From: an uncultured Nitrososphaeraceae archaeon
GTDB taxonomy: Archaea; Thermoproteota; Nitrososphaeria; Nitrososphaerales; Nitrososphaeraceae
Direction of reading: 5' to 3'
Length of the DNA: 64,000 bases
NCBI GenBank assembly: GCA_963779615.1
Contig: CAVZZA010000003.1
Coordinates: 768,001 to 832,000, forward strand
In this document: one piece after another, positions 5,929 through 60,569 of the stretch
How positions within the stretch are numbered: the first letter of the stretch is position 1
Layout: every line of letters begins with the position of its first letter
Program-made: the position numbers and the translations under genes
Notes under the pieces: model-generated
What the model was told of the DNA's origin: nothing
Seen by the model: only the letters and a program-made list of their open reading frames with translations
Database searches by the model: none

Positions 5929-7002
5929 TCAATTATTATCCTTTCTCCAATCTTCTACGATTACGTTAATAGCTCCATCGTCTTTAAGTAACCGACTAAA
6001 TGGATAACGTTCCCTGAATCCAATATATCCGCAATGGTTATCTCCCCAGCCATGTACTCCCTTATCACAAAAGGATTGGTATATTCCACTAGCCCTGTTT
6101 AACGGAGGTATTTCGAACTTGACGTCACGTTCAGTATAATTTTCGGGAAACGGTTCACCTTTTCTGAGACCGCATAAGCCTAATGGATTTTGATTTTCTG
6201 TATTTATGTATGCCCCCTTAAGTGCATTATCCTCTGGATTGTATAGATTGTAGAACCTATTTACGGTATTTTCTATAGCATTTCCAAAAGGAGCGTTTTT
6301 TGATGTCGATTTATCGTCAATGGCTGCGCCTATTAGATGTACGGAGGCAATGTTGTACACTGTATCCTTCTTCCATATTTGGTCACTATTATTGACCAAG
6401 ATTATCAAGGCGCTTTCAACTACTTTTGCCCCTAAAGAATGAGCAATGATTCTGATATTGACATGTGGATAGGTATTTTTAAAGTCGGATATGAATTTTG
6501 CAAGCTTTGACCCATTCTGATTTGCTATAGATTTAGCAACATTCCAGCCTGACAGATTTATTGCTGTGTTTGAATCCCAACTAAACCCTATTATTGGATG
6601 ATGATATCTATTTGCATTTAATGATAACTTAGTTCTATCTATTTGTTCTTTAGCAGAGGCCTGTTTAGTCCATACTCCATGGATATATATTACCAAATCT
6701 TTGTTAGGTGGATAAGAATTTCTGTTAAATTCAGGCACATGATAACAGTCGTAGGCGTGCATCTTAGGTAAAGAACTTGGTTTCCCTGTTAAAAGGCTAA
6801 AATGGCCCCTAGTCGATACCATTGGTGTTGTTGATGATGATGATGGTAACGCTATAGAAGGATTTGCATATATGGATTGCATACTCCTTTTGTTTTCGTT
6901 TATATTTTTCAATTTGGTATTCCACATATTCAAAAGGTTGGAGGTGAAAGGACTCTTATGACGCCCTGCCATGGGGTTGTTAAGGGTAACCCAAATAACC
7001 AT
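5929..7002 (-). CDS. Alpha/beta hydrolase (DUF726/DUF900-like)
   Basis: VIYIHG, FSWDS, IAHSLGA nucleophile elbow, YNPEDNAL; true start may be downstream. Confidence 0.75.
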   Translation of the reverse strand: MVIWVTLNNPMAGRHKSPFTSNLLNMWNTKLKNINENKRSMQSIYANPSIALPSSSSTTPMVSTRGHFSLLTGKPSSLPKMHAYDCYHVPEFNRNSYPPNKDLVIYIHGVWTKQASAKEQIDRTKLSLNANRYHHPIIGFSWDSNTAINLSGWNVAKSIANQNGSKLAKFISDFKNTYPHVNIRIIAHSLGAKVVESALIILVNNSDQIWKKDTVYNIASVHLIGAAIDDKSTSKNAPFGNAIENTVNRFYNLYNPEDNALKGAYINTENQNPLGLCGLRKGEPFPENYTERDVKFEIPPLNRASGIYQSFCDKGVHGWGDNHCGYIGFRERYPFSRLLKDDGAINVIVEDWRKDNN

Positions 7003-51885: not shown

Positions 51886-52295
51886 GGTGGAGACAAATTC
51901 ATAAAAGATATGGCATCAGAGAACGGCAGTTTTATTCGACTGAGAAAGATAATTTCGCTTTAGAAAGTAGTTTTATTGACGAACATCTTACAAACTCTTT
52001 TATTCTTATGTTCAATGCTTTTGAACATTCATTTAGAGGCATATCTAAGGAATTTGATGATAAAATATATCCTCTCAACCCAAACTTGGGGGTTTATTTC
52101 CTAATATCATTGTCTAAACTAAATTTGTTGAATGCAGAGATGAACACATTTATAGAGATTGTCCTAGTAATTAGAAATTCAATTCATAATAACGGAATTT
52201 TCGTCGCAACTAAAGGTAATCCAGCAAAATCTTTACCCTGGAAAAATAAGACATATAATTTTTACAATGGTACCATCATTAATGTCGATGATGTT
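51886..52295 (+). pseudogene. HEPN-like domain fragment
   Basis: FNAFEHSFR helix and IRNSIHNNG (Rx4-5H-like); no clear start; cut off by integrase stub 1. Confidence 0.45.
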
Positions 52296-52432
52296 TGGCC
52301 CTCTAAACCTAAAAAATTAAAAAACCTTTCCAATCTTTTTGGATATTTTTCTCTGGTTACTGGCGACTTTAGCGCAAATAAATATAGAGACCAGACGTTT
52401 TGTTCTTGTTTGTTGTTTTGTTCTACTATCAC
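52292..52432 (-). pseudogene. Tyrosine integrase 5' stub 1
   Basis: GTG start; reads IVEQNNKQEQNVWSLYLFALKSPVTREKYPKRLERFFNFLGLEGQT, homologous to ORF 58830-59168 (FIYALRSSESKRHYPKRLKVFLDYL). Confidence 0.7.
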
Positions 52433-52483
52433 CTTTTTTATACATTTTATTTTAGAACCCTCTTAAAAGAACCCGTTATAGGA

Positions 52484-52503
52484 ATGGGCCCAAGGGGGTT
52501 TGA
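52484..52503 (-). other. att-like tRNA 3'-end fragment 1
   Basis: Minus strand TCAAACCCCCTTGGGCCCAT, identical to 20 nt of the copy at 59264. Confidence 0.7.
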
Positions 52504-52904
52504 GTAAGGTAGATAAGCGGGTTCAATCAACTTTTGTACATAACTAAAAGGATTTAAATTGTGCAGATAAAGAAGTTCAATAACAATGTTAGGACACTAT
52601 AACAAACATAATTTCGTTAAAAGTCAGTAGTTATAGACAGGTCAAAGTAGAATGCGATTGAATGCTACTGTAAGACGGGATTCATGATTATACAGTCATT
52701 AGATTCTATCACATTTTTTATACGCAGTTTTGATAATAGCTTGGATACTGTCAGAAAAGAATTGAAGAAAGAATTCAAAAAAGATGGCCCTGACAAATAT
52801 TTCATGCCAAACTCTGAACAAAAATATACTTGTGTCACAAACATCCGGTATTGCTAATCTAATACATCAAATGGTGAAAAAGTTTAATTTTAGATTGGCT
52901 ATTA

Positions 52905-53054
52905 TTAAGTTGCAGTATTATCTTTTTCGGCATCGGCCTGATTGCTGTCACTTTGGGTTTCACTTACATCATATGCAGTGCTTTCTTCATCTAATGTTTC
53001 GTCTTTGAGGATTTTCTTCACCGCTTTATCCTCTGCAAAAACATCTTCACTCAT
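52905..53054 (-). CDS. Small acidic hypothetical protein
   Basis: MSEDVFAEDKAVKKILKDE..., 49 aa; AT-rich TATA-like sequence upstream. Confidence 0.4.
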   Translation of the reverse strand: MSEDVFAEDKAVKKILKDETLDEESTAYDVSETQSDSNQADAEKDNTAT

Positions 53055-53553
53055 TGCTGTAAATGATGAAACAAAGTATTTATAAATATCATAATCCAAG
53101 GAGATAATAACAATATCTTGCTTTAATCAATCCGTTTCATATTTATATTATAATTATTATGAATTCTGCGATTTCTCATTGTAAAATCCATATTTTTACA
53201 GCAATCAAAAAAGATGAGGGAAAATAATGCATATCCTCGGTCCGTAAATAGTTGAGCATGTGACATAGTGAGCGTGACAAATGTTCCTGTCACGTGATAA
53301 AATTAAATAAACTCTGGGGAGGAGTATGGAAAATTAATTATAATTCTGTGGACTTTAATGAAAGAAATTAAAAGAAAATGCTCATGCATCAATATAAAAA
53401 GACAACATCGATATGATTATATCTATTTATTATTAATTCTAGAGTTATGAATAACTTTGTTCTTTTTCTCTCTAGTAATAATGTACCATTTTAGAAGGTT
53501 TTATATAATTGTCACCTAAGGGATGATGACTTTGGCTTCGAAAAGTAGGGATA

Positions 53554-53570
53554 AATGCCGATATCGGTTC
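53554..53570. repeat. 17-bp repeat with palindromic core, copy 1
   Basis: AATGCCGATATCGGTTC, identical at 55660-55676. Confidence 0.8.
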
Positions 53571-54081
53571 TCAATAAGAGATTCTACTAAATTACGTGAT
53601 ATAACCAAATTTAAAGATTATGGATTCATTTGTTATTACTCATGTGTAGTCATTTAAACTATATTAGATACCATTTTTTAGAATTCATCTGAATAACATA
53701 ATAAAAAAGGGTTGAATGAACAACAAATATTGGCCATGGCATGTTCCTTACCCTTGAACTGATGCTGTTACAATTGGCATGTTCCTTTCTGCATGCATTA
53801 CTTGAGTTACATACTGCAATACGAATCGTAAATATGTAGGTTTGTTAAGTCAACTCTTTTACATTTTCTTGGCTCATGGTTAAGTTAGATAAATCCACTT
53901 GTATCAAATAAAAAAGTCAACAAATTACTGTTAAAACAAGAATAACAAGCAAAGAGCATAGCAATCATAGTAATGTGATTGTAATTCGTGGGGATACGGT
54001 TCAAGGATGAAGATAATCCCTGAACATAGTGATGTTTTCTCGGGATTAAGGATGAAGCGCTATGTTTGAATATTCATTTTG

Positions 54082-55431
54082 TTATTTTTTATTTTTATGG
54101 ATTTCGTTCATGACGTATTGCATATAATCGACCATTTCAGTTTTATCCAATGACGTTTCAACTCCAGATGCTTCCGAAATTTTATCTTCAAGATTCTTTG
54201 CAATGGTCAATACTCGGGATTCTAATTCTTTATTTCTATAAGCAGTGCCAATACTACCAAGGAAATTGGCTTGCTCAGTTACAGATTTCCTAATTGATCT
54301 TAGAAGTACATTATCCCGCGAAACAATTTGGGCTGCCGAATATAGTCCTGAATAAATAAAGTAGCATGAGAATCCAATAAGAGAAATCGAAAGCAGGCCA
54401 AATGGCGGATATGCAGCCTGAGTAGCATTGGCAGATCCCGTAATATAGAAAAATAAAAATCCGAATGCAGCTAACATCAATTGAGTTCTGACTGCAGAGC
54501 CCATCTTAATGGTTTTTGCTATTGATAAGAAAGAGGTTCCAAATATGATTCCTGAAAGAAGTCCTGCAAAAGAGAATATGAGAATATTTAGGAAAGCATT
54601 TGCGTCACCAAAAGGATCTAAATACCCCAACGCAAAAAGAGGAAATTCTATATTGTAATAAATAAGAGATATAATCATTATAGACCAAAACTTGTGTCTT
54701 CCAATTCTGTGTAGATATCTATATAGCAATTTTACACTGCCTATCCAGGTTAAGATAAATGCAGTTACGGAAAAACCATTGTTAATTAAATTAATTTGAC
54801 TTCCGATAAATTCACTACTAAATTCAGGAAAATAAGCAACATTACCTAAAGAGATAATCGGTTCTTGCTGTGCCAATGTATCCAATGCGTAAATCAAACC
54901 GAATAACCCATTCGCAACATAGGCTATCATAGCAAGTGTAAATATCAGGATAATGTTATTTTTATCAAAATTCTTATACCATAGGATGAATGCTCTTGTC
55001 AATAGTCCCAATATACCAATCCAAATTCCAAAACTAATAATGTAAATAATGTATAGAAAAGCGGTATAATATTCTTGAAATATCGCAATCTGTAGAACAA
55101 CAGAAGTTAACATTATTACGATTATAATTTGTGATATGAATATTATAAAAAAAACTAATTTGAAATGAATGTATTTTACTTTTGTCAGTTTTTCGATATT
55201 TTTAACACGATAAATAATAAAAACAGATGATAAAATTAGAAATATTGTCAAACCTACATATAGAAGAATCCCAGGCAAAGAGGATACATATTCGGGAATA
55301 AAATCTGAGATAATACCGATCTGAGAATCTATAATAACAGAGATAATCATGAATATAAAGACAATCAGAATTCGGTTGTTTTTGGGTTTCACAGAAGATG
55401 ATATACCATCCACATAATTTTTAATGTTCAT
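54082..55431 (-). CDS. Multi-pass membrane hypothetical protein
   Basis: 449 aa, about 10 hydrophobic segments, soluble helical C-terminal tail. Confidence 0.85.
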   Translation of the reverse strand: MNIKNYVDGISSSVKPKNNRILIVFIFMIISVIIDSQIGIISDFIPEYVSSLPGILLYVGLTIFLILSSVFIIYRVKNIEKLTKVKYIHFKLVFFIIFISQIIIVIMLTSVVLQIAIFQEYYTAFLYIIYIISFGIWIGILGLLTRAFILWYKNFDKNNIILIFTLAMIAYVANGLFGLIYALDTLAQQEPIISLGNVAYFPEFSSEFIGSQINLINNGFSVTAFILTWIGSVKLLYRYLHRIGRHKFWSIMIISLIYYNIEFPLFALGYLDPFGDANAFLNILIFSFAGLLSGIIFGTSFLSIAKTIKMGSAVRTQLMLAAFGFLFFYITGSANATQAAYPPFGLLSISLIGFSCYFIYSGLYSAAQIVSRDNVLLRSIRKSVTEQANFLGSIGTAYRNKELESRVLTIAKNLEDKISEASGVETSLDKTEMVDYMQYVMNEIHKNKK

Positions 55432-55659
55432 ACATATTATCGTTAAACGATGTTGTTGAATTTATAGAATTGTGAATATATTAAATAACCTCAACCCTAG
55501 GTATTAGACGGTGCGTCAAAAGTAAATATTTAGAGAATTTGTAACAAAAAAGGCTTTTCGTCCAGTATCGCATATGGAATAAATCTTAAGCGAATCCAAA
55601 TAACATTATCTATTTTTAACTAGAAATTTTATTTCTGGTCTAATCCATCCGTGGGTGCT

Positions 55660-55676
55660 AATGCCGATATCGGTTC
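55660..55676. repeat. 17-bp repeat with palindromic core, copy 2
   Basis: AATGCCGATATCGGTTC. Confidence 0.8.
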
Positions 55677-55861
55677 CCTATAACGGATCACAAAACAAAA
55701 GAGAAATGTTATTCTAAATATCTTTAGATACTTTGGTTGTTTAGTCAAATTAAGGCTTATGTATAATGTATGCCAATCAGGAAATTCTTTAAACAACACG
55801 AGTATCCGGAGCCTCCAAAGCATATTATAACTTTTAAGATAAAGTAAGCATTAGTTATGAC

Positions 55862-56528
55862 GGCTCTGTTCACTTAACCATAAGGCTAAAGCTTGAAGGA
55901 GCTCTATCCCCTTTGTGGTTAGCAGAAACAGAACACCTTCATCATACATTGGCTATGGTCTTTATTTGTACTTCTCGGGGTTGTCCTTAAGGCGTGTTTC
56001 AGAAAGATTGTCTTGCTCTGTCAAGCGAAACCACGTTTCAGTCTGGAACTGGATTCAGAAATACAAACCTAAAAGGATGTATTCAAGAAGGAAAACGATA
56101 TTCGACTTTATCATTGATGAGACATTAATCAAAGCAGGCTCGGAGTTAGTGTGGCTGTGGGTAGCCATTGAGCCAAAAAACAGGCAGATTCTCGCATTGT
56201 CAATCTCCAAGGAAAGAAACATGTTTGTTGCAGAGAGGTTTATCTCAGGATTTATCAAGATTTGCGGAAAGCATCCGGTTTCAACAGACGGTGGCACATG
56301 GTATCCACAAGATTGTGGGTTCTTGAAGATAACGCATCACATCCATTCCCCTTTGGAGAAAAGCCTGATTGAAAGGACGATGCAGTAAATCAAGGACAGG
56401 TCTGAATGCTTTGACGACTACTTTCCCTGCAGGTTGAAGAATTGCAACCTAAAGCATGTTCGGAACTGGCTGAACCTGTTTGTAGATTACCATAACAAGG
56501 AGATAAAAACGCTTAAGTGAACACAGCC
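55862..56528 (+). mobile_element. IS6 family element; transposase has a premature stop
   Basis: TIRs GGCTCTGTTCACTTAA and TTAAGTGAACACAGCC; direct repeat GTTATGAC at 55854-55861 and 56529-56536; TAA at 56386 replaces Tyr in MQYIKDR. Confidence 0.92.
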
Positions 56529-56529
56529 G

Positions 56530-56874
56530 TTATGACATAGATTGATTCATTATTCTTTTATCATATGCCTCAATTATCTTTTGTAAACCATGTTCTTCTT
56601 CCTTTGCTGCATCGATAAATTCATCTAAAAAGCTGCATTCTTTCACAATTCTGACCTTATCAAAGAAATCCTGGTTATGTAATCTCTCAAGTTCTATGAT
56701 CTCAGAAGTAGATGATTCGTTATATGCAGACTTAATTAGATTTTTTTGAATCAGTAATCGGTTATAGCGACTGGCTGCAAAATAGCGCCTAAAGAGATTC
56801 AACCTCTCCTTCTTACCGATCCTCTCAAGTTCTCCTTTATCAGGGAATTTAAAATCAATCATCTTGTTGGTCAA
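56530..56874 (-). CDS. Hypothetical helical protein
   Basis: 114-aa ORF (RRYFAASRYNRLLIQ); its stop codon lies in the IS6 target repeat. Confidence 0.7.
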   Translation of the reverse strand: MTNKMIDFKFPDKGELERIGKKERLNLFRRYFAASRYNRLLIQKNLIKSAYNESSTSEIIELERLHNQDFFDKVRIVKECSFLDEFIDAAKEEEHGLQKIIEAYDKRIMNQSMS

Positions 56875-57044
56875 CCGTAAGCAAATCTTGGTACTATCGC
56901 CTAATCAATATTTTCTTATTGAGTTTGGAATGGCAGATTTAAGTTGTAGTTTATTGTCAATTTCTCTTAGTATCCATTATTTGTGATATTTGATTGTAGT
57001 AAACACGTATAATTATGCCTTATCTACTTCCTCAATGGATTAAA

Positions 57045-57235
57045 ATCAAAATATGCGCAGATATGACCGTGCGAGCAGGATACTTTGACACTGGTCTGAA
57101 GGTTAGTGCTATCACCGGCCTTCTTTAGCTGTGCACTAGACTCCCAAACTGCATAGCCGATGAATGTGCCACTGCCACCAACGCCTTTGCGGAGCTGACC
57201 TGAAATGAATCCAGGCTGGCTGTTGACTAAAGGCG
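57045..57235 (-). pseudogene. Antibiotic biosynthesis monooxygenase (ABM) domain remnant
   Basis: QPGFISGQLRKGVGGSGTFIGYAVWES then KYPARTVISAHI after a shift; N-terminus missing. Confidence 0.65.
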
Positions 57236-57429
57236 TATGATGACTTTATTAAGGTGTAATAGCCGCTCTACCCACACATTAAAATTTACACATAATAACT
57301 AAAGATACACATACCTACCCATTTTCTCTTTTCCTTCCCTTTCTTCTCCTTCTTTTTGGATTCTTAGTATATCTGCACTATAATTAGTAGTTTCTACTTG
57401 TCTGAGCACCTGATACACATCTTTATTGT

Positions 57430-57552
57430 TAAAAAATTAAAAAACCTTTCCAATCTTTTTGGATATTTTTCTCTGGTTACTGGCGACTTTAGCGCAAACA
57501 GATACAGTGACCAGATATCAGGTTCACGATTATTCTCATTTTCAATCAACAC
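57430..57552 (-). pseudogene. Tyrosine integrase 5' stub 2
   Basis: LIENENNREPDIWSLYLFALKSPVTREKYPKRLERFFNFL; 57430-57498 is identical to 52310-52378 (69 bp). Confidence 0.7.
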
Positions 57553-57606
57553 TTTTTTCTTTACACCTTAATTTAGTAAAACCACTTAAAAGAACCGTTA
57601 TAGGGG

Positions 57607-57622
57607 TGGGCCCAAGGGGTTT
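57607..57622 (-). other. att-like tRNA 3'-end fragment 2 (degenerate)
   Basis: Plus strand TGGGCCCAAGGGGTTT. Confidence 0.6.
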
Positions 57623-57741
57623 AGTAATAGATATATTACGAATCCAAATGCAAAAATAAGGCCACATTTCTTTTTATATGGATTAATAATTCAAAAAATC
57701 AAGTAAAACAGGGAGTTTTTATCCAATAACCTATTACTATA

Positions 57742-58737
57742 ATGATGGATGAGTTAACACTCAAACAATTGAGGGGCTCTAATTTTTATTCCCCAGAAAT
57801 TATTGATCTTGTTTTTGATTCCAATAAAATGGTGGAAATTATAACAGACTGGGTCAATATTGCCGAAAAAGGATTTGATACGCTATGGGATCCAATTATG
57901 TTTGATTTTTTATGTAAATACTGTAGAGAGGGTATGTACCTAGCTAAAAGACAGATCAAGGAAAAAGGTATCAAAATACGAATGATTACCGAAACAACAA
58001 AAGAAAATCTCGGTTTCATAGACTCCCTGAATTGTCCTAATATGAGACATTTAGATGGCATTAGGGGCAACTTTGGAATTTTTGATCAACGAGCTTACAT
58101 GGTATACATTTTTCATAAAGAAAATGAAAAACCCGATCAAGCTCTTTGGAATAATTCAAAAGTTTTAGTGGACCAACAGCAAATTCTTTTTAACAAGCTA
58201 TGGAAAATATCAATTCCATTTTCTACTAGAAAAACAGAATTAGAGAATGCCGAAAACCCTCCCCGGAAAAAAATTTTTACAGACTATAAAGATATTCAGC
58301 AGGAACTAGTTTCAATAGTAGAACAGTGCAGAAAGGAACTTTGGATATTTTCTTCTACCAAATTATTTAATCACGTTATAAACAAAAACAATTTCCTGAA
58401 ATACTCTAACACACTTTTAAAAAAAGACATACGGGTCAAAATTCTATTTGATGGTATTGACCTAAACATACTGAAACAAATCCGTGAAATAAATAATACA
58501 ACTAGCAGTAATCAAATCCAAATCGGCTATACAAACAAGTTGGGAAATTTTAATGAACTGGTAGTAATAAATGACCAAAAATCTGTATTGAAGATAAAAT
58601 ATGACAATACCTTAAATCTAGGTGCTTCAGTATCAAATGAAGAACACCAAATAGTCTTGCAAGGTATCCTATTTGAAAAATATTGGAATGAGATAGAAAG
58701 TCTATCATCATTAAATAACATGACTAAAGGAGATTAA
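57742..58737 (+). CDS. Tandem TrmB-effector/PLD-like domain protein resembling the N-terminal region of thaumarchaeal histidine kinases, without kinase domain
   Basis: GIKIRMITE.TKENL, RHLDGIRGNFGIFD, VDQQQILFNKLW; second repeat IRVKIL...VVIND...LFEKYWNE. Confidence 0.7.
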   Translation: MMDELTLKQLRGSNFYSPEIIDLVFDSNKMVEIITDWVNIAEKGFDTLWDPIMFDFLCKYCREGMYLAKRQIKEKGIKIRMITETTKENLGFIDSLNCPNMRHLDGIRGNFGIFDQRAYMVYIFHKENEKPDQALWNNSKVLVDQQQILFNKLWKISIPFSTRKTELENAENPPRKKIFTDYKDIQQELVSIVEQCRKELWIFSSTKLFNHVINKNNFLKYSNTLLKKDIRVKILFDGIDLNILKQIREINNTTSSNQIQIGYTNKLGNFNELVVINDQKSVLKIKYDNTLNLGASVSNEEHQIVLQGILFEKYWNEIESLSSLNNMTKGD

Positions 58738-58829
58738 ACTCCTGATAAATCACCGGTAATGATGACCACTCTTTCTTGTTGATATCTTGCAAATGCAAGC
58801 AACATTCCTTCAAACTTGTCACCGTTCTT

Positions 58830-59190
58830 TTAAATTGTAATTATAATTTTCCAGTTAATTATAATTCCATTCATTTCACAAAATAGCTTGACAGGTTTAA
58901 GATAGTTCTTTATGGTCTCTGTCGATATTTCTTTTCTTTCATCTCTTTGGTTTTGTACAGTAAAGAATTTGATAAGTTCGCCTTCCAACCAACTAACTCC
59001 CCTTTCTATAATCAGTCCATAAAATGAATTGGACTTTTCTTCGATTGATAAATCTTTGATTTGTAAATAATCAAGAAAAACTTTTAATCTTTTAGGGTAA
59101 TGCCTTTTTGATTCTGATGACCTCAAAGCATAGATAAATTTGATGAGGAGAAAGGCCTGCATTCTCACAGACTTGAGTAGTTGATGAAGA
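58830..59190 (-). pseudogene. Tyrosine integrase N-terminal fragment (stub 3)
   Basis: FIYALRS.ESKR.YPKRL...EIS.ETIKNYLKPVKLFCEMN.I.INWK core-binding-like domain; catalytic domain absent. Confidence 0.75.
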
Positions 59191-59263
59191 CGATGGGGAA
59201 GAGAGCAAAGTCATTTAATTACAATAGATTTAGTGTGGGCCTTTAAAAACGAACAGATGTATT

Positions 59264-59287
59264 ATGGGCCCAAGGGGGTTTGAACCC
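59264..59287 (-). other. att-like tRNA 3'-end fragment 3
   Basis: Minus strand GGG-TTCAAAC-CCCCT-TGGGCCC-A: T-arm, acceptor 3' strand and discriminator; no 5' half of a tRNA present. Confidence 0.75.
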
Positions 59288-59409
59288 TATATGATTGGTG
59301 GTTAAATAGTTTCTCTTATCAACATTTCAAGAATTCACCATATTGTTTTATAAAGAATTGAAAAGAAGAGTTCACATTATATTCTCAAATATGTTTCCTA
59401 ATACTATTT

Positions 59410-59874: not shown

Positions 59875-59974
59875 TATTTATTTTAACAATTTATTAACTA
59901 CCGAAGTATATAAAATATAAAAAAAATATGGGTTGAAACATTATGCTTTGATTGTGCTTGTAATGTGAAGTCAT

Positions 59975-60094
59975 CATTTGACCACCATTTGACCACCATT
60001 TGACCACCATTTGACCACCATTTGACCACCATTTGACCACCATTTGACCACCATTTGACCACCATTTGACCACCATTTGACCACCATTTGACCA
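59975..60094. repeat. Perfect tandem repeat, 11-bp unit CATTTGACCAC, about 10.9 copies
   Basis: Directly visible; no spacers. Confidence 0.97.
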
Positions 60095-60569
60095 TATTAA
60101 AGTATTTGACGCTATTGCAGAGTATAAAACCATCATGAACAAATGAACATATTGATCTTAACAACGGGTTAGTAATATAGACGCTTAAAGGCTAATTTAC
60201 AAGGATATCATAAAGTTTTTGCCATAATGAATGGGTTCATAATCTAGTTAATGTAATTAATGCATAGTCACAAAAAATCTTCCACTTATAATGCTGCCAT
60301 ATGATCAGAATATAACAATAAACAAAGATGACCAATTTTACAATCGCCATAAAAATCACAATTATCATAAAGCCTTTTCCATGGTTAAAATAAAAACACC
60401 ATAGTCCAATTCAATGGCAGAGGTACAGGGTATATTGTCATATTGCTTTGATGCGAACGTGTACTGACTCTCACCTGATATAAAACACAGAGAATTTTTC
60501 CAAAATGCAAATGTTGAACTAGAGTTTGACACCATACTCAAGCACCACATATTCTATAATTACAAAAAA

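Follow-up and report, generated by a model that had tools for sequence, protein, structure and literature searches.

A probable fragment of a decayed accretion array of small integrative units at tRNA-Met tail copies in a Nitrososphaeraceae archaeon

Organization of the locus

The DNA analysed here is a stretch of 64,000 nucleotides from an uncultured Nitrososphaeraceae archaeon (GenBank assembly GCA_963779615.1, contig CAVZZA010000003.1, positions 768,001 to 832,000), which is called the window below and corresponds to G000:C3:768001-832000, where G000 denotes this genome and C3 the contig; related genomes carry similar numbers. The G000 genome comprises 3.17 Mb in five contigs and is 92.5% complete with 2.3% contamination. 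Between 52.2 and 59.3 kb the minus strand of the window carries three copies of a tRNA 3′ end, which form the cores of attachment (att) sites, and each copy is followed by a leader and by the 5′ part of a tyrosine integrase gene (a stub). We consider this region to be probably a fragment of a decayed accretion array, in which small integrative units stand head to tail at copies of a tRNA 3′ end. In our reading, the array is made up of units resembling cis-mobilisable elements (CIMEs) and of dead integrase genes. The three modules are composed as follows.

59265..59287, minus strand: att1, 23 of 23 nucleotides identical to positions 52-74 of tRNA-Met(CAT), i.e. its last 23 nucleotides
58830..59264, minus strand: leader B (59215-59264) and stub1, with ATG at 59214, frameshifted and cut at about codon 110
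57607..57650, minus strand: att2 with left arm 1; exact core of 13 nucleotides at 57607-57619, palindromic motif in the arm at 57624-57639
57394..57606, minus strand: leader A (57553-57606) and stub2; reading frame 57394-57552, integrase homology stops at 57430, after codon 41
52485..52526, minus strand: att3 with left arm 2; core of 19 nucleotides at 52485-52503, arm at 52508-52526
52262..52484, minus strand: leader A (52433-52484) and stub3; reading frame 52262-52432, integrase homology stops near 52292, after codon 47

An earlier interpretation made from the letters and their open reading frames (ORFs), the sequence-only reading, had described three co-oriented tail copies on the minus strand, starting at 59265, 57607 and 52485. 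A search with a 20-mer of the tRNA tail bore this out, with matches at 59265-59284 (no mismatch), 52485-52504 (one mismatch) and 57607-57626 (three mismatches). By chance 0.01 matches are expected in the window, and none of 100 shuffled sequences gave three. Exact identity to the tail of tRNA-Met(CAT) extends over 23 nucleotides in att1, 19 in att3 and 13 in att2, the core of which is eroded. The three Met-type stub modules proposed earlier thus stand, but at least two further co-oriented tRNA-Lys-like junctions between att2 and att3 had been missed, and the 7-kb stretch contains at least five or six co-oriented junctions instead of three.

Cognate tRNA and distribution of the cores

The cognate gene, tRNA-Met(CAT), is located at 264819-264892 of C3, on the same contig and the same strand as the stack of modules and 556 kb away from it. 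ARAGORN detected no tRNA gene in the window. The exact 12-mer of the core is present in 12 copies in the genome, as compared to 0.04 expected from base composition; this count leaves out four matches to a looser regular expression that have neither arm nor leader. One copy belongs to tRNA-Met itself, seven are found on the strand of the tRNA in the 148 kb that follow it downstream, three are in the window and one is on contig C2. The att cores are, accordingly, direct repeats of the 3′ end of a host tRNA gene in multiple copies.

The main tRNA-Met array covers G000:C3:117208-264892; arms 1, 2 and 3 (see below) are all found at its cores, and one decayed module of leader A and integrase is located at 251 kb. 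Contig C2 (29.8 kb) is also dense in modules: a Met core with arm 2 is found at 1549, and cores of the TCCCCACG type are located at 6865 and 19774. An integrase remnant with a frameshift occupies 18.9-19.5 kb, and a further stub lies at 28.7 kb. The contig may represent an island that was left unplaced or an extrachromosomal element.

Ordinary tandem att arrays adjoin tRNA-Val, tRNA-Gly, tRNA-Arg and tRNA-Ser on their downstream sides. Displaced tail copies were found for tRNA-Val(TAC), Gly(CCC), Arg(GCG), Arg(TCT) and Leu(GAG), some of them on other contigs. Because these five other tRNAs also have far-off tail copies, displacement is a general trait of the genome.

Integrase stubs, leaders and the integrase family

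Two full-length members of the integrase family are encoded in the genome. The intA gene on contig C4 encodes a protein of 421 amino acids and starts just after tRNA-Arg(GCG), and intB at 386 kb of C3 (418 amino acids counted from an inner ATG) starts just after tRNA-Ala(TGC). The pattern R...HxxR...Y is visible by eye in both proteins. The Phage_integrase profile (PF00589) matches the full-length proteins weakly, with E values of 7.5e-6 and 1.3e-4; the scores, 26.3 and 22.2 bits, are under the cut-off of 27.1, and in the genome-wide search with PF00589, intA reached 27-28 bits.

The stubs align to the N-termini of these proteins, in agreement with the earlier description of integrase-like genes truncated at about 110, 41 and 47 codons behind a leader. 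Stub2 is 79% identical to residues 5-42 of intA and stub3 is 78% identical to residues 5-45, while stub1 is 45% identical to residues 20-109 of intB (tblastn). Stub1 is distributed over two frames: the ATG at 59214 opens a frame of 40 amino acids and homology goes on in the frame 58830-59168, with the frameshift near codon 25. Its match to Phage_int_SAM_1 (E 3.5e-4) is under the cut-off, and the stub1 module has 75% DNA identity to a counterpart in G016 and G019. All three stubs stop before the catalytic domain. Searches with PF00589 over the whole genome and tblastn with intA and intB revealed no integrase catalytic domain in the window, and together with the ARAGORN result they agree with the earlier statement that the window lacks both an intact tRNA and such a domain. 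The check recommended at that time, for a cognate tRNA and a full-length integrase, yielded tRNA-Met(CAT) and the two family members at tRNA-Arg and tRNA-Ala. A full-length Met-type integrase was not found by tblastn or the PF00589 search in this genome, at the completeness given above.

The leader separates the att core from the start codon by about 50-55 nucleotides in these modules. Two leaders can be recognised, A before stub2 and stub3 and B before stub1, and both are conserved across different tRNA targets. Since the att site is outside the reading frame, these are classical integrases and not 'suicidal' ones of the SSV type, as both types are defined in PMC8371274. Intact genes exist in the family, as intA and intB stand beside whole tRNAs and G005 shows tRNA-Met, leader A and then an integrase that is open to the end of the contig (residues 5-231), whereas the copies in the window are broken. 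G016 and G019 combine arm 2 with a Met core, followed by leader B and an integrase gene with a frameshift. The integrase family to which the stubs belong is found throughout the genus and has its att site outside the gene.

Searching the genome with the stubs (tblastn) gave 17 stub-like loci, including two of full length; five of the 17 abut whole tRNAs and the rest have a tRNA tail only. Remnants in G000 are ten N-terminal pieces versus one C-terminal-only piece, in addition to the two full genes. The N-terminal remnants stop at query residues 42, 45, 58, 58, 65, 103, 106, 170, 240 and 275. In a hand tally of 61 rows from five relatives, about 19 loci are N-terminal only, about five lack the N-terminus, about 18 cover the greater part of the protein, in some cases with stops, and two run into the end of a contig. 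The surplus of N-terminal remnants would follow from geometry: the integrase gene is at the edge of the element beside a tRNA tail that must stay, and therefore deletions from the cargo side would survive far more often than those that remove the start of the gene. A site-specific break near codons 40-47 was considered and rejected, as the break points differ and range from residue 42 to 275 genome-wide.

Stub2 and stub3 share 69 identical bases (52310-52378 and 57430-57498) at an offset of 5120, as had been reported before. In the same register 38 of 60 positions agree on the start-codon side of this block and 20 of 60 past the break. The end of the block coincides with the end of the stub2 homology. 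The block is best explained as a gene-conversion patch between two related stubs.

Junction arms and integrase-less units

To the left of the cores only about 35 nucleotides are conserved, and these fall into arm classes. Arm 1 precedes att2, the Met cores at C3:263346, 232277 and 172369, and a locus in G016 (L014). Arm 2 precedes att3, the Met cores at C3:251162 and C2:1549, and loci in G021, G016, G019 and G009. Arm 3 has 11 copies in the genome, where it is joined to Met, Arg(TCT), Lys-like and eroded cores, and two of these copies are within the att2-att3 interval (55661-55674 and 53555-53568). The arms are shared between species, and past the arms the sequences are unrelated. Arms and leaders A and B occur in free combination across junctions, which is the expected pattern because at each junction the far end of one element meets the near end of the next.

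The interval between att2 and att3 comprises the following junction and units.

55645..55688, minus strand: junction of left arm 3 (truncated) and an eroded tRNA-Lys-like core; the same arm and core are at the same place in G020
53987..55674, minus strand: integrase-less unit with a gene for a 449-amino-acid membrane protein (54082-55431), ending in arm 2X and core TCCCCACG at 53987-53994
53547..53984, minus strand: non-coding unit of about 440 bp, ending in left arm 3 (motif 53555-53568)
52492..53331, minus strand: distal part of unit E2, including two small ORFs (53123-53293, 52905-53099); 80% identity to G009 (L007)

The 1.69-kb unit with the gene for the 449-amino-acid protein is 83% identical to DNA in G020 and G002. 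The homology of this unit sets in a little before a TCCCCACG-type core, which in G000 and G020 means within the preceding arm, and extends as far as the downstream core. The flanks are unrelated, with three distinct contexts on the right and two on the left. Copies of the unit of about 440 bp are found in G005 (three), G021 and G009 and are 76-82% conserved. This unit begins directly after core-like sequence in the four full-length copies aligned and ends in arm 3 in three of them; in one G005 copy, arm 3 leads into a core of the Arg(TCT) type and leader B. Within the unit, a conserved block of about 170 nucleotides ends in a T run. This block was considered as a structured RNA, which was rejected as there was no Rfam match below E 0.09 and only one of 46 predicted pairs showed a double change. 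The G009 homology of the distal part of E2 (52492-53331) stops inside the att3 core.

Like CIMEs, the intervals att1-att2 (1.66 kb) and att2-att3 (5.1 kb) each have an integrase stub only, and the inner units are integrase-less and bounded by TCCCCACG-type cores. The sharing of unit boundaries across species suggests that integrase-less pieces were moved or reshuffled at the junctions. Boundaries at junctions are hard to obtain from random deletion, which argues for site-specific movement of such pieces. For the TCCCCACGCGCCCA core, ARAGORN found no cognate tRNA at seven such loci or at 43-139.7 kb of G020:C9. A core variant ending in GGGCCCG was traced to the tail of an intron-bearing tRNA-Lys(UUU) in G021.

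A large array in a related genome

A much larger array is present in G020 on contig C9. Between 58000 and 135100 the 8-mer [T/G]CCCCACG occurs 24 times on one strand and not once on the other. A recognisable arm, one of three arms of about 30 nucleotides, precedes 22 of these 24 junctions, which have tRNA-Lys-like cores of the TCCCCACG type and are spaced by 0.6-11.6 kb (mean about 3.3 kb) over 77 kb. The array contains one full-length integrase of the family, located near one end directly after a junction and behind leader B, which is 52-56% identical to intA and intB. A search of 96.7 kb around this array with ARAGORN yielded no tRNA. In the 34-kb part with ORFs listed, the genes mostly encode secreted or membrane proteins. 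In G002, a related core pattern has 24 matches, which are spread over many small contigs.

A leader follows only two of the 24 junctions of G020. The stub was considered as a part of the recombination site, and this was rejected because the G020 junctions are mostly without leader or stub. The proposal of the sequence-only reading that an att core plus stub is the mobile unit is not supported, for the same reason.

Cargo and insertion sequence

The cargo between the modules is as listed previously, i.e. an orphan ORF in one interval and an ABM remnant, a hypothetical gene, an insertion sequence (IS) of the IS6 type and the membrane protein mentioned above in the other.

57742..58737, plus strand: cargo of unit E1, an ORF of 331 amino acids, convergent with stub1; no Pfam match
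57024..57245, minus strand: ABM-domain remnant, C-terminal part only (PF03992, E 0.0015, under the cut-off; profile positions 28-73 of 78)
56530..56874, minus strand: hypothetical ORF of 114 amino acids with a paralogue at C3:564395 (85% identity)
55854..56536, strand not applicable: IS6-type element; element 55862-56528 (667 bp), PF13610, inverted ends and 8-bp target duplications

The 331-amino-acid ORF has 11 weaker tblastn matches elsewhere in the genome, with 25-37% identity. The closest paralogues of two cargo genes are inside the tRNA-Met array region (47% and 68% identity). IS6-type elements have many copies in the genus, with dozens in some relatives and more than 40 matches in G012. 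Just upstream of att1, at 59950-60116 of the window, an 11-bp unit forms about 11 tandem repeats; the tract is flanked by an ORF of 154 amino acids, with three paralogues elsewhere in the genome, and an ORF of 90 amino acids.

Public sequencing runs were used to look for alternative forms of the locus. The best run contains 0.13 of the sampled words of the stretch, and the contigs of four runs were aligned to the locus. A contig of run X4 spans the empty site of the IS6-type element; it skips 675 bp, with 100 letters on the shorter side and 8 letters shared. This length corresponds to the element (667 bp) together with one target duplication of 8 bp, and the insertion is therefore polymorphic. 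The contigs of the four runs contain no att-to-att joint that lacks an explanation by a paralogous locus (short sides of 20-24 letters). The joint from 57591 to 59264 has 24 letters on its short side, equal to the tRNA-Met tail, and is attributed to the canonical locus, with tRNA-Met followed by leader A, in a related strain. A joint at 57601 in run X1 has a tRNA-Ala-type core and is attributed to a paralogue; other short contigs of X1 are identical to parts of the locus and too short to span the joins.

Surroundings of the stack

Genes outside about 51.1-61.3 kb look chromosomal. One flank encodes a Na/sulfate-type symporter, a glucose dehydrogenase, a glyoxalase and an Usp protein, and the other encodes MarC, an SRPBCC protein and CDC48, followed by amoB and amoA. 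The latter genes lie 7-12 kb past the end of the window (within C3:832001-852000), where amoA is a clear match (Archaeal_AmoA, E 1e-117) and the match to Monooxygenase_B (AmoB family) is weak; their presence near the locus shows that the host is an ammonia oxidiser. In the same region, a tail copy of the tRNA-Leu(GAG) type is found at C3:848031 and tRNA-Thr(GGT) at C3:851724. DNA searches of 40 relatives and five chosen genomes revealed no shared gene order for the locus. The symporter of one flank was not found in five relatives and MarC of the other flank had only paralogues, so no empty site of the stack can be defined.

Origin of the stack

The arrangement can be explained by repeated integration and decay. 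The parent elements would have encoded a classical, non-suicidal tyrosine integrase, with the gene 50-55 nucleotides downstream of the att core behind the conserved leader. Such an element would use the tRNA tail, or whichever copy of this tail is already resident, as its insertion site, by which the core is duplicated, and deletions may then have stripped the 3′ part of the integrase gene and much of the cargo. The leftover units would keep their junctions and lose the ability to move by themselves. Three units begin with dead integrase 5′ ends, all of the tRNA-Met type, and the middle interval also contains nested integrase-less units of the tRNA-Lys-like type and the IS6-type element, which would have been inserted later. 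Decay is suggested by the differing breaks at codons 41, 47 and about 110, the frameshift in stub1 and the eroded core of att2. In bacteria, decay by deletion followed by a new integration in a resident att site is described as the accepted origin of accretions of integrative and conjugative or integrative and mobilisable elements (ICEs and IMEs) with decayed CIMEs (PMC5704250). A graveyard of repeated integrations was one of two interpretations offered by the sequence-only reading; it gains support from the tRNA-Met core, the integrase N-termini, the ordinary tandem att arrays and the shuffled arms and leaders. The core is a host tRNA tail, the stubs are integrase N-termini, and a fixed set of cargo explained by one local duplication was not found, i.e. 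none of the three observations that had been named beforehand as speaking against that reading was made.

Several observations weigh against decay in place as a full account. An accretion array or CIME is expected to abut its target gene, whereas tRNA-Met is 556 kb off and the window is free of tRNA genes. Moreover, there is no Met core besides the three within C3:768-860 kb that would close the stack on either side. As the stack is not beside tRNA-Met and a closing fourth Met core is lacking, accretion in place at tRNA-Met cannot be the whole story. The two inner units that recur with homology ending at or beside the junctions suggest more than random deletion alone. A perfect block of 69 bp beside a flank of 63% identity is not predicted by independent old decay, and gene conversion or a shared recent origin is needed to account for it. 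Finally, the assembly is incomplete and consists of five contigs, so that an integrase of the Met type or a misjoin may have escaped notice. Movement as a composite, chromosomal rearrangement and misassembly are possible causes of the displacement. For the arrival of the stack 556 kb from tRNA-Met, co-mobilisation as a composite or a chromosomal rearrangement would be favoured. An assembly misjoin, with the modules really belonging to the tRNA-Met array, seems improbable. The number of contigs, the incompleteness and contamination of the assembly, the repeat-rich nature of the locus and the two cargo paralogues in the tRNA-Met array region would fit a misjoin, but the stack is inside a 1.2-Mb contig with ordinary genes on both sides, and tails of other tRNAs are likewise found displaced to other contigs.

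The other interpretations concern the nature of the modules. The locus could be a working cassette platform, where att-bounded units that are integrase-less or bear a stub are moved by a related integrase encoded elsewhere, similar to CIMEs, which a neighbouring ICE can mobilise, or to integron cassettes, on which IntI acts. Consistent with this are the 1.69-kb unit, shared by G000, G020 and G002 with core-bounded homology and differing neighbours, the unit of about 440 bp in G005, G021 and G009 that starts right after core-like sequence, the 24 co-oriented junctions with a single full-length integrase in G020, and the arms that are conserved across species beside unrelated DNA. Against it, the two intact integrases of the genome are located at tRNA-Arg and tRNA-Ala and none of the Met type was found, the att2 core is down to 13 nucleotides, arm 3a at 55645-55688 is truncated, the break points of the stubs are unequal and stub1 is frameshifted; with a leader after so few G020 junctions, the stubs seem unneeded. 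We regard a working platform at this locus as rather unlikely. The sequence-only reading had offered a cassette array moved in trans as its other interpretation. This is a minority reading for the locus, where no Met-type integrase was found, the att2 core is eroded and the public contigs gave no excision joint, but the recurring integrase-less units and the G020 array keep the idea alive for the genus. It is conceivable, at a low probability, that the genus runs an integron-like gene-capture system based on tRNA-tail att sites, with a few intact integrases shuffling small units in trans between arrays and species, and that the window is a detached and partly eroded piece of it. The units of such a system would, as an equally tentative proposal, be mostly single-gene and often integrase-less, each ending in a conserved arm of about 30 nucleotides and a tRNA-derived core. 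A local segmental duplication, by which modules 2 and 3 would be copies of one module instead of separate integrations, has little to recommend it. The perfect match of 69 bases with an offset of exactly 5120, a repeat of 129 nucleotides with 83% identity and the occurrence of leader A in both modules agree with duplication. However, the left arms differ (arm 1 versus arm 2, with matches at C3:232277 and in G016 for the former and at C3:251162 and in G021 for the latter), the cores measure 13 and 19 nucleotides, identity on the start-codon side is 63%, the break points are six codons apart and nothing else is repeated between the two intervals, so that a short gene-conversion patch explains the block better. 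Least probable is that the stubs represent int(N) halves of 'suicidal' integrases of the SSV type, which are split on integration. N-terminal pieces paired with att copies superficially resemble int(N) borders as described in PMC8371274, but here the att core is 50-55 nucleotides upstream of the start codon and not in frame, the stubs do not stop at the att site, and tblastn of the genome found no int(C) partners. In addition, full-length members are intact while integrated beside whole tRNAs, and Pfam assigns PF00589 to the full-length proteins and not the SSV-type domain.

Relation to known systems and significance

A decayed accretion array, which we prefer as the explanation of the stack, has counterparts in bacteria and, in part, in archaea. 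The tandem accretions of the ICESt1/ICESt3 family in Streptococcus, located at 3′ ends of tRNA genes or other targets (PMC5704250), likewise show att sites on both sides of units that have no working integrase, and units of mixed origin head to tail on the same core. The present case differs in the host (an ammonia-oxidising archaeon), in that no conjugation genes were seen, in the very small size of the units (0.44-5 kb) and in the location of the stack off the target tRNA. The genomic-island arrays at ssrA in Dehalococcoides (PMC3146451) include fifteen islands without an integration module, which that source regards as possible cis-mobilisable elements. There, a dozen or more direct repeats of the RNA 3′ end with conserved flanks lie within about 100 kb downstream, and the tRNA-Met and G020 arrays are alike in this respect. 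The Dehalococcoides system uses a serine recombinase and a tmRNA gene (PMC3146451), whereas a tyrosine recombinase and tRNA genes are involved here and the stack in the window is detached from its tRNA.

Closest in host group are the integrated elements of Thaumarchaeota (Krupovic et al. 2019, PMC6563490), which use tyrosine recombinases and tRNA genes, have att sites with a median of 17 bp and down to 8 bp, and number 1-8 high-confidence elements per genome. They share the host group and the short tRNA att sites with the present array. Tandem integration and one nested element are mentioned in that source, and its descriptions of the elements, to the extent consulted, include no stacks of many integrase-less mini-units and no rows of integrase 5′ stubs. 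Similar to the family studied here, the classical type II integrases of the pNOB8-like group (PMC8371274) have an att site outside the gene, a gene that stays whole after integration and a tRNA 3′ end as the target. The att sites of pNOB8 elements in Sulfolobales measure 40-50 bp according to the same source, versus 13-23 nucleotides here, and the likeness is judged by the att layout. A literature search for direct-repeat genomic islands with an integrase in Nitrososphaera gave as relevant only the work on Thaumarchaeota elements and one general study of archaeal 'dark matter'. A full-text search revealed no literature that links integron-type arrays to the Nitrososphaer- group.

Integrons have reportedly been found in Archaea, in a bioRxiv preprint (10.1101/2022.02.06.479319). 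The arrays described here resemble them in having co-oriented, mostly single-gene units between conserved sites and, in G020, one integrase near one end. They differ in that no IntI-type integrase is present and that the sites are derived from tRNA tails with short arms instead of attC hairpins (judged without running an attC model); tblastn and the PF00589 search revealed no integrase gene of any type in or beside the locus of the window, apart from the stubs.

The locus shows how accessory genes, encoding membrane proteins and small proteins of unknown function, build up in a soil ammonia-oxidising archaeon. Small elements that target tRNA genes would bring in the cargo, after which the integrase decays and the cargo stays. 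This outcome alone is ordinary, being known for bacteria and, in outline, for archaea. Two points that may be worth following up are the recurring integrase-less units of 0.4-1.7 kb and the presence of 24 junctions with one integrase in a relative. If such units do move in trans, they would represent an uncharacterised route of cassette exchange in these archaea.

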